From Escherichia phage vB_EcoM_E9.1: a stretch of DNA of 64,000 nucleotides. Positions 18,631-20,220 of the stretch are shown piece after piece (position 1 is the first letter of the stretch; each line of letters begins with the position of its first letter). Under the pieces are notes generated by a model. The model had not been told where the DNA came from. It ran no database searches and saw only the letters and a list, made by a program, of their open reading frames with translations. The stretch is taken from the sequence record PP886230, one strand, 5' to 3'. A program made the position numbers and the translations under genes.

Positions 18631-19969
18631 ATTAACCCCTAAACAAGCAAAAGAAAAATTCAACAATAAAGTATTAGAACATAACGTTCCAATTGAAGCT
18701 GATTATAGTAAGTATGAAAATGCCAAATTAAAAAACATCCAAGTAGTTTGCAATGATGTATTAAAACACAAATCAGGCATATCACAAGTATATCTTATGG
18801 ATCACGCAAACCTCACACACCCATCTAAAAAATTTGGTTGTCCTGAATGTGAAGACTGGTATAATGGTCATGCTAAAAGTTTAGATATTTTAATTGTTAG
18901 GGAAAGAATTAATTCTTGGATTAGTACTTATGGTGGCATAATTGATACAGTTAGTGGTGAAGTTGAAGTTTATAAAAATAATTCAACAAAAATACCATAT
19001 ATTTGTAAAAATGGAACTAAAAAAACGCTTACTATTTCTACACTGGGTGATGAAATCGGTTGTAATTGTTCTAAATGTAAATCTGAATTAATATCAGAAA
19101 TCGAAGATAACAATGAATATACATCCATGACTACTGATGATGATTGTGTTACAATTTCCCATTTTATATTTGGGGATGATGTTGCATTCTCGTGGATTTC
19201 ACCATTGGAAATGAAAAAACATGGTTACGGTCTTGCCGAAAAAATGAAAGAAAAAGCATTGTCGGTTGGTAAAAATATTATTGGATATGCAATATCATCT
19301 CTTAGTGAATGGAAAAATGAAAAAACTCCTGTAATAACGGAACACGAAGGAGTATTATATCGTATTTCCAGAGCATCATATTTGATCAATAATAATATAG
19401 TACATAGACCACATTATACAAAAAATAATTTTTTATATTATTTTTACAAATGTTCACCTAACAATCAACTTATTACACCAATCCTAATACCTGATGATGT
19501 TGGTACAAAAAAGAAAATTAAAGTATGTTATAAATCATGTGGGTGTGAATACGATATATCTGTGGACGTTATAATGAACAGAAATTTAAAAACTTGTGGA
19601 AACTGTAAAAATATAGATACTAAAACATTTATAGAAAAGTGCTTGGAGTTCAAATCAAGTGGAGAATATATCTATAATAGAGTAAACTATATAAATCAAA
19701 GTACACCTGTAACTATAGTTCATAAAATTTACGGAGAATTCAAAAGTACACCACAAAATCACTTAACACATTTAAAAAACAGTTTGAAATATGATACAGC
19801 TAACTTTAAAATAAAAAATCTAACTCAATTTAAAATTAAAGCAAATGAAGTTCATAATAACTTATATAATTATGATAAAGTTGATTATGTAAATTCTTCA
19901 ACGAATTTAAAATTAAAGCAAATGAAGTTCATAATAACTTATATAATTATGATAAAGTTGATTATGTAA
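18620..19969 (+). CDS. Cys-rich repeat protein, N-terminal part; frame broken by tandem duplication
   Basis: CxxC pairs (CPEC, CNCSKC, CGNC); reading frame ends inside second 77-bp repeat copy. Confidence 0.45.
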   Translation: MPAKLTPKQAKEKFNNKVLEHNVPIEADYSKYENAKLKNIQVVCNDVLKHKSGISQVYLMDHANLTHPSKKFGCPECEDWYNGHAKSLDILIVRERINSWISTYGGIIDTVSGEVEVYKNNSTKIPYICKNGTKKTLTISTLGDEIGCNCSKCKSELISEIEDNNEYTSMTTDDDCVTISHFIFGDDVAFSWISPLEMKKHGYGLAEKMKEKALSVGKNIIGYAISSLSEWKNEKTPVITEHEGVLYRISRASYLINNNIVHRPHYTKNNFLYYFYKCSPNNQLITPILIPDDVGTKKKIKVCYKSCGCEYDISVDVIMNRNLKTCGNCKNIDTKTFIEKCLEFKSSGEYIYNRVNYINQSTPVTIVHKIYGEFKSTPQNHLTHLKNSLKYDTANFKIKNLTQFKIKANEVHNNLYNYDKVDYVNSSTNLKLKQMKFIITYIIMIKLIM

Positions 19970-20220
19970 ATTCTTCAACGAAAGTATTAATAACTCATCC
20001 AGTGTATGGAGACTTTTGGCAAACTCCAAATGGGCATTTGGCAGGTAAAGGACACCCGAAAGTCAAAGGTGGTGTTCCTTATACATGTGATGAATTTAAA
20101 ATTAAAGCAAATGAAGTTCATAATAACTTATATAATTATGATAAAGTTGATTATGTAAATTCTTCAACGAAAGTATTAATAACTCATCCAGTGTATGGAG
20201 ACTTTTGGCAAACTCCAGCA
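19829..20220 (+). repeat. tandem DNA repeats (77-bp copy, then two ~122-bp copies) inside gene
   Basis: near-identical copies starting tttaaaattaaagcaaatgaag at ~19829, ~19906, ~20096. Confidence 0.7.

Follow-up and report, generated by a model that had tools for sequence, protein, structure and literature searches.

A 77-nt tandem duplication interrupting a homing-endonuclease-like gene of Escherichia phage vB_EcoM_E9.1 is probably an untrimmed assembly overlap

The sequence record of Escherichia phage vB_EcoM_E9.1 (PP886230) holds a homing-endonuclease-like gene with repeated zinc-finger modules, whose reading frame is broken by a perfect tandem duplication of 77 nucleotides (nt). We analyzed a stretch of 64,000 nt of this record, hereafter the window, which belongs to an Asteriusvirus, a PBECO4/121Q-like jumbo phage of Escherichia coli. 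We conclude, with a probability of roughly 0.78, that the duplication is an artefact of assembly or finishing, that is, a k-mer overlap left untrimmed, and that the phage most likely carries an intact gene for a protein of 628 amino acids (aa). An earlier reading of the same DNA made without database searches, termed here the sequence-only reading, had offered a pseudogene, an assembly collapse or expansion, or a slippage-prone switch as the cause. Of the two assembly errors it is the expansion that is now favored, since 77 is an assembler k-mer length, the unit is a branching k-mer, other assemblies break or collapse at the same place and close relatives hold the gene intact. All coordinates below follow the numbering of the window, and all listed features lie on the plus strand (Table 1).

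The anatomy of the duplication is simple. Tandem Repeats Finder reported one array at 19827-19982 with a period of 77, 2.0 copies, 100% matches and no indels (score 312), the sole long perfect tandem repeat across the window. No base differs between the two units, 19827-19903 and 19904-19980; the sequence-only reading had recognized this tandem unit and placed its copies at ~19829 and ~19906, which are the first full codons (TTT) of the units. A longer exact repeat of 125 nt, termed here R, lies at 19904-20028 and again at 20093-20217 with an offset of 189 nt, equal to 63 codons, and its identity extends to 126 nt if one coincidental G on the left is counted. It follows from the coordinates of the unit and of R that the insert is the first 77 nt of R. 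The third, longer copy noticed previously in frame (~122 bp at ~20096) is the second copy of R, and the repeated protein motif described at that time is borne out as well, both R copies encoding FKIKANEVHNNLYNYDKVDYVNSSTKVLITHPVYGDFWQTP. The duplication junction reads ...TTCAACG/AATTTAAAATT..., with the slash at the junction and the unique upstream CTAACTC 77 nt before it, and AA constitutes a 2-nt microhomology at this point. The 125-nt cores of R are identical, yet the sequences that follow copy 1 (the spacer) and copy 2 have clearly diverged when compared by eye, a combination suggesting that a degenerate module was partially duplicated in recent times or underwent gene conversion.

The effect on the gene is the frame break that had been assigned to a duplication not divisible by three, with a split at ~19969. 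The open reading frame (ORF) starting at 18620 is in frame through the first unit, out of frame through the second, and meets a stop at 19967-19969, while downstream the correct frame stays open between 19885 and 20583. Deleting one 77-nt unit in silico restores a single ORF of 1887 nt encoding 628 aa. The downstream fragment can be read from a GTG at 20002, ahead of which no Shine-Dalgarno sequence was seen when the DNA was read by eye.

Intact versions of this gene are annotated in other phages. Both vB_Eco_slurp01 and vB_EcoM_phAPEC6 have an uninterrupted 1887-nt gene (628 aa) at the same place, the window gene deviating from it in nothing but the 77-nt insert and a single substitution. Phage A4 has a diverged allele of 1698 nt (565 aa, ~60 substitutions) that contains only one 189-nt unit. 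A megablast search against 50,697 phage records, many Asteriusvirus genomes included, found four that match the gene (slurp01, phAPEC6, A4 and Ecwhy_1); three of the four carry the gene, the match in Ecwhy_1 being an 87-nt fragment only, and the 77-nt insert is present in none of them. Neither truncated product (449 aa and 193 aa) was found by exact look-up among protein records, nor was the junction sequence found by exact scans of viral, genome and metagenome contigs in three public collections. E. coli complete genomes gave no match, and IMG/VR gave distant relatives only, with identities of at most 47%. The existence of intact, near-identical phages, and the absence of junction and truncated products from all collections searched, favor an artefact. 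The gene itself has not decayed, because all invariant residues of its nuclease domain are kept.

The length of the unit points in the same direction. For reads of ~150 nt, 77 is the largest default k of the assembler SPAdes. We constructed k-mer graphs (k = 55, 77 and 127) of the whole window from both strands, after removing one copy of the unit. At k = 77, the graph has only two branching vertices, 19827 with two predecessors and 19875 with two successors, and the 77-mer at the in-branch, 19827, matches the duplicated unit letter for letter. The branching disappears at k = 127. The graph at k = 55 additionally exposes a second exact repeat of ~64 nt at window positions ~31480-31543 and 32700-32763, with copies 1220 nt apart; the corresponding positions in the restored sequence, 31403 and 32623, are converted to window coordinates by adding 77.

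A plausible route to the deposited sequence would run as follows. Short reads would be assembled at k = 77 by software based on de Bruijn graphs, and the graph would branch at R because the exact 125-nt repeat is longer than k. A contig or circular path would then start at the branching vertex, which is the first 77-mer of R (the contig thus beginning with AATTTAAAATTAAAGC...), and end on the same 77-mer. If the ends were subsequently joined, or the genome rotated, while the k-mer overlap was left untrimmed, the product would be U-R[1..77]-R[1..125]-M-R[1..125]-D instead of U-R-M-R-D, where M is the spacer between the R copies and U and D are the sequences on either side. The arrangement U-R[1..77]-R-M-R-D is exactly that of the window. 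Overlaps of this length are known from published assemblies: a 77-bp overlap has been attributed to SPAdes, with identical contig ends that need trimming (PMC9409062), and identical first and last 77 bp have been reported (PMC8767329).

Independent short-read assemblies also fail at R. Three E. coli whole-genome assemblies contribute partial proteins to the 90% cluster of the 628-aa protein. One contig, JAMRIZ010000036.1, opens at repeat position 27, its first 99 nt being the last 99-mer of R, and another, JAMRDX010000129.1, opens at repeat position 71, which corresponds to the last 55-mer of R; both starts fall inside R copy 2. Partial proteins 498, 425 and 357 aa long terminate within the repeat or shortly ahead of it, the exact 3′ contig ends for the 5′ partial proteins P0123 and P0126 being deduced from protein length. 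A Logan contig (run ERR1546644; L021 1501-3198) has flanks 100% identical to slurp01, and its 189-nt unit is collapsed to one copy. The number of 63-aa units differs among the alleles, with two in slurp01 and phAPEC6 and a single one in A4 (L002 1501-3198) as well as an ENA contig (P0129). At least some of these one-unit versions may represent assembly collapse rather than real deletion, because the Logan contig has one unit yet retains its perfect slurp01 flanks.

In several respects the duplication resembles the untrimmed terminal k-mer overlaps of circular or circularly permuted SPAdes-type assemblies (55, 77, 99 or 127 bp): it is a perfect 77-nt copy, its unit is the k-mer at a branching vertex, and it is absent from the sister genomes. 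A number of points speak against an assembly origin, however. Unlike such overlaps, the duplication is internal instead of lying at the ends of the record, and would need a rotation or contig joining that is undocumented. One of the partial proteins, that of 425 aa, ends at about repeat nt 68-70, which is no standard k boundary, and therefore not every break at R is a clean k-mer. Genuine replication slippage would be consistent with the AA microhomology at the junction, and perfect tandem duplications do arise in phage stocks. Finally, the history of this particular assembly is something we infer.

These points lead to the rival that survives best, a real and very recent duplication. Slippage or template switching at the AA in the phage stock would have frameshifted a selfish homing-endonuclease gene and left a fresh pseudogene. 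The duplication is, after all, present in the sequence together with its microhomology; homing-endonuclease genes can be dispensed with, and turnover at this locus is seen among Asteriusviruses; and the window represents a distinct isolate with its own single-nucleotide polymorphism (SNP) in the gene. However, slippage predicts neither a unit of exactly 77 nt nor a start at the first base of R, the sole in-branch vertex at k = 77 in 64 kb, and no other genome, contig or protein record has the duplication, nor is the rest of the gene decayed. A real duplication would also be unstable and revert by recombination, because it is a perfect direct repeat of 77 nt. Taken together we regard this explanation as unlikely, though it deserves consideration.

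Another possibility is that the arrangement serves as a functional on/off or dosage device, either a reversible tandem toggle or a site of −1 ribosomal frameshifting, from which both a nuclease-less DNA-binding protein and the full-length enzyme would be produced. A heptamer T_TTA_AAA of the canonical form X_XXY_YYZ is in register with the zero frame of the upstream ORF, so placed that a ribosome slipping by −1 would continue in the frame that is correct for copy 2. A nuclease-free DNA-binding derivative is also known in this family, namely CapR of the PLE satellite, a domesticated endonuclease (PMC8096241). Against such a device, slurp01, phAPEC6 and A4 lack the duplication and have one continuous ORF, indicating that the frame-breaking arrangement is not conserved. 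No stimulatory RNA structure was found after the heptamer, the downstream 85 nt folding at −8.4 kcal/mol with z = −0.34 relative to shuffled sequences, and the heptamer is a by-product, namely the TTT AAA A of the repeat itself when the frame is shifted; its role as a slip site is speculative. Known contingency loci have much shorter units. Programmed −1 frameshifting was thus rejected for want of both structure and conservation, and the slippage-prone switch proposed earlier is not supported, given the same absence of the duplication from slurp01, phAPEC6, A4 and everything else in the collections searched. We consider any such device very improbable. The boldest version of this idea would be a long shot to the same degree: a real duplication caught in the act of converting a T5orf172-type homing endonuclease into a 449-aa nuclease-less multi-zinc-finger DNA-binding protein analogous to the CapR repressor, where low-level −1 frameshifting or loss of 77 nt would still give the enzyme and thereby constitute a reversible homing switch.

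A different technical error, such as a long-read consensus that was chimeric or wrongly polished, or a manual change made while scaffolding on a reference, would fit R as a proven trouble spot for assembly, but does not predict an exact 77-nt unit coinciding with a graph vertex, and is the least probable of all. Three further candidates were dismissed. An old pseudogene, to which the earlier proposal would amount if long decay was meant, is ruled out by a single SNP besides the insert relative to intact alleles and by the retention of all invariant nuclease-domain residues. Unequal crossing-over between the 125-nt repeats was rejected because the change in length would be 189 nt, not 77. A two-step route through a three-unit array followed by a 112-nt deletion at a GAA microhomology gives the same sequence and is less parsimonious.

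Setting the duplication aside, the gene underneath looks like a homing-endonuclease-like gene of the T5orf172/GIY-YIG type with repeated DUF723/DUF4379/CapR-like zinc-finger modules. The window protein itself gave nothing significant in Pfam, NCBIfam and PDB sequence searches, and the domains were assigned through homologues and a structure model. Matches of the protein's own two fragments are to PHROGs only: PHROG 681 “endonuclease” (2e-41 with the C-terminal fragment) and PHROG 559. With the 628-aa protein as query, a database search returned 202 homologues, mostly over residues ~330-530. DUF4379, a treble-clef zinc finger, is matched by 38 of the 45 aligned homologues and DUF723 by 27 of the 45 (E down to 1e-137), and the consensus unit of the alignment reads TxEEFIxKAxxxHGxKYDYSKVxYxNxxTKVCIICPEHGEFWQxPxxHLxGxGCPKC. 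The first ~330 residues have homologues only inside their own 90% cluster among the 130 proteins retrieved. In the duplicated units (window 19829-19951 and 20095-20217; residues 404-444 and 467-507 of the 628-aa form) none of the four conserved Cys ligands remains: both the alignment and direct reading show the four near-invariant Cys positions replaced by L/H/H/V in one unit and L/H/H/A in the other. The term “Cys-rich” applied to the gene by the sequence-only reading therefore suits the N-terminal units with their CxxC pairs, and not the duplicated ones.

The C-terminal 121 aa are modeled as a GIY-YIG-like fold of the T5orf172/MUG113 type. This separate and widespread domain has 547 representative homologues, in which it is nearly always C-terminal within proteins of 100-590 aa; T5orf172 was matched in 15 of 52 of these, MUG113 in 9 of 52, and N-terminal CapR domains in 31 of 52. 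An AlphaFold model built from the homologue alignment is confident, with a predicted local distance difference test score (pLDDT) of 91.6, and its structural neighbors in BFVD are phage proteins named CapR-homology, zinc-ribbon, homing endonuclease, GIY-YIG or T5orf172. The window protein retains every invariant column of the domain alignment. A role as homing endonuclease is hence predicted, with cleavage and homing as its putative activities. Barth et al. (2023) described a lineage of T5orf172 homing endonucleases with repeated zinc-finger DNA-binding domains of the CapR/DUF723/DUF4379 type (spelled there DUF4397/PF14344, and once “DUF723/4379”), and regarded nucleotide-level repeats in these genes as likely recombination substrates (PMC10448857).

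Sequence comparison of Asteriusviruses shows that the gene occupies a hot spot where it is present, absent or replaced. The fixed site lies between a 79-aa ORF (ORF79) and an AAA-ATPase-like gene. At the same site 121Q has an “endonuclease” with CapR domains and no significant similarity to the window gene, and PBECO4 has a third allele that is 30% identical over the C-terminal half. In SP27 (L022 867-2064) both ORF79 and any endonuclease gene are absent, and a 119-aa ORF is directly followed by the AAA-ATPase-like gene.

Two direct repeats of 45 nt bracket ORF79 and the endonuclease gene as a cassette, at a spacing of 2258 nt that includes the extra 77, and the cassette (window 18374-20631) is missing from SP27 exactly between the positions of these repeats. 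Each 45-nt repeat consists of a hairpin terminator overlapping a near-consensus sigma-70 promoter. The composite motif TTGACTTCGGTCAGCCCTTTTTGCTATAAT, with 0-3 mismatches allowed, occurs at five intergenic sites of the window (6937-6966, 12766-12795, 17053-17082, 18335-18364 and 20593-20622) where none is expected by chance; for this reason the flanking repeats were rejected as an endonuclease-specific feature. Short near-identical matches to TTGACTTCGGTCAGCCCTTTTTGCTATAAT were also seen in distant large phages, namely Serratia BF, Pectobacterium CBB, Aeromonas phage 65, Klebsiella K64-1 and Vibrio phages. PeSL motifs, which likewise combine promoter and terminator, have been described to mediate modular shuffling in T4-like phages (PMC2839356, PMC4122927).

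Upstream of the cassette, at 17111-17626, lies a gene for an endonuclease V/pyrimidine-dimer glycosylase (DenV-like). It encodes 171 aa in the window and in 121Q and is annotated with 144 aa in slurp01, phAPEC6 and PBECO4; in the window and 121Q, the gene is succeeded by an additional ORF of 64 aa. The difference in length and the extra ORF indicate further mosaicism just upstream. Elsewhere in the window, an imperfect tandem array at 44703-44794 has overlapping periods of 16, 32 and 40 nt with 72-78% matches and a unit like GGCTAGACGTCTGGAT.

Table 1. Positions of the interrupted gene, its repeats and the surrounding cassette in the 64-kb window.
Feature	Position	Strand	Basis or remark
Left 45-nt direct repeat, hairpin terminator and sigma-70 promoter (PeSL-like)	18329..18373	+	
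ORF79, 79 aa, travels with the endonuclease gene as a cassette	18391..18630	+	In slurp01, A4, phAPEC6, 121Q and PBECO4; absent from SP27
Interrupted homing-endonuclease-like gene with zinc-finger repeats and a GIY-YIG/T5orf172-like C-terminal domain	18620..20583	+	ORFs, restored ORF, intact relatives, PHROG 681
Upstream ORF, 449 aa	18620..19969	+	N-terminal DNA-binding repeats; last 21 residues out of frame
Sole base of the gene that differs by substitution from slurp01 and phAPEC6	19676	+	A for G; D353N
Extra 77-nt copy	19827..19903	+	Insert relative to slurp01, phAPEC6 and A4; identical to R[1..77]
R copy 1	19904..20028	+	125 nt, exact; 19904-19980 is the second tandem unit
T_TTA_AAA heptamer	19906..19912	+	Zero frame of the upstream ORF; direct reading
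Downstream ORF fragment, 193 aa from GTG	20002..20583	+	ORF list
Unique spacer M between the R copies, 64 nt	20029..20092	+	Encodes NGHLAGKGHPKVKGGVPYTCDE
R copy 2	20093..20217	+	125 nt, identical to copy 1
C-terminal 121-aa domain, predicted GIY-YIG-like fold of T5orf172/MUG113 type	20218..20580	+	
Right 45-nt direct repeat, hairpin terminator and sigma-70 promoter	20587..20631	+	

If the duplication is indeed an artefact, the deposited genome contains a spurious insertion of 77 nt through which one intact gene of 628 aa appears as two “hypothetical proteins”, and the record needs correcting. The main value of the present analysis accordingly lies in quality control. The test is reusable: one copy is dropped, and it is asked whether the de Bruijn graph, built at a standard k, branches at the k-mer that was duplicated; the same class of error can be flagged in this way in other phage genomes. 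If the duplication is real, it would mean that a selfish gene has been newly inactivated, a case of modest interest. In either case the underlying gene is real but ordinary, consistent with published T5orf172-type genes in its identical internal repeats, its differences in unit number and its motif-bracketed cassette.

Compared with known systems, the gene is closest to the T5orf172 family (PMC10448857), with which it shares a predicted C-terminal GIY-YIG-like fold whose homologues match T5orf172 and MUG113, an N-terminal part whose homologues match DUF4379 and DUF723, a sporadic distribution, a hot-spot locus and internal repeats at the nucleotide level. It differs in that the window protein stays below Pfam thresholds and its last two units are without the four Cys ligands. 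The likeness to PeSLs concerns the cassette and not the 77-nt duplication. The 45-nt repeats of the window join a hairpin of the A3-4G3-loop-C3T3-4 type to a near-consensus sigma-70 promoter as PeSLs do; PeSLs, however, have been described for T4-like phages and not for Asteriusvirus, and recombination at the window motifs is presumed from their position around the cassette. The GIY-YIG homing endonuclease I-TevI has its nuclease at the N-terminus. Relative to I-TevI and the Seg proteins of phage T4, the order of domains in the window protein is reversed, the DNA-binding part being N-terminal and the predicted nuclease C-terminal, and its DNA-binding modules are of a different kind.

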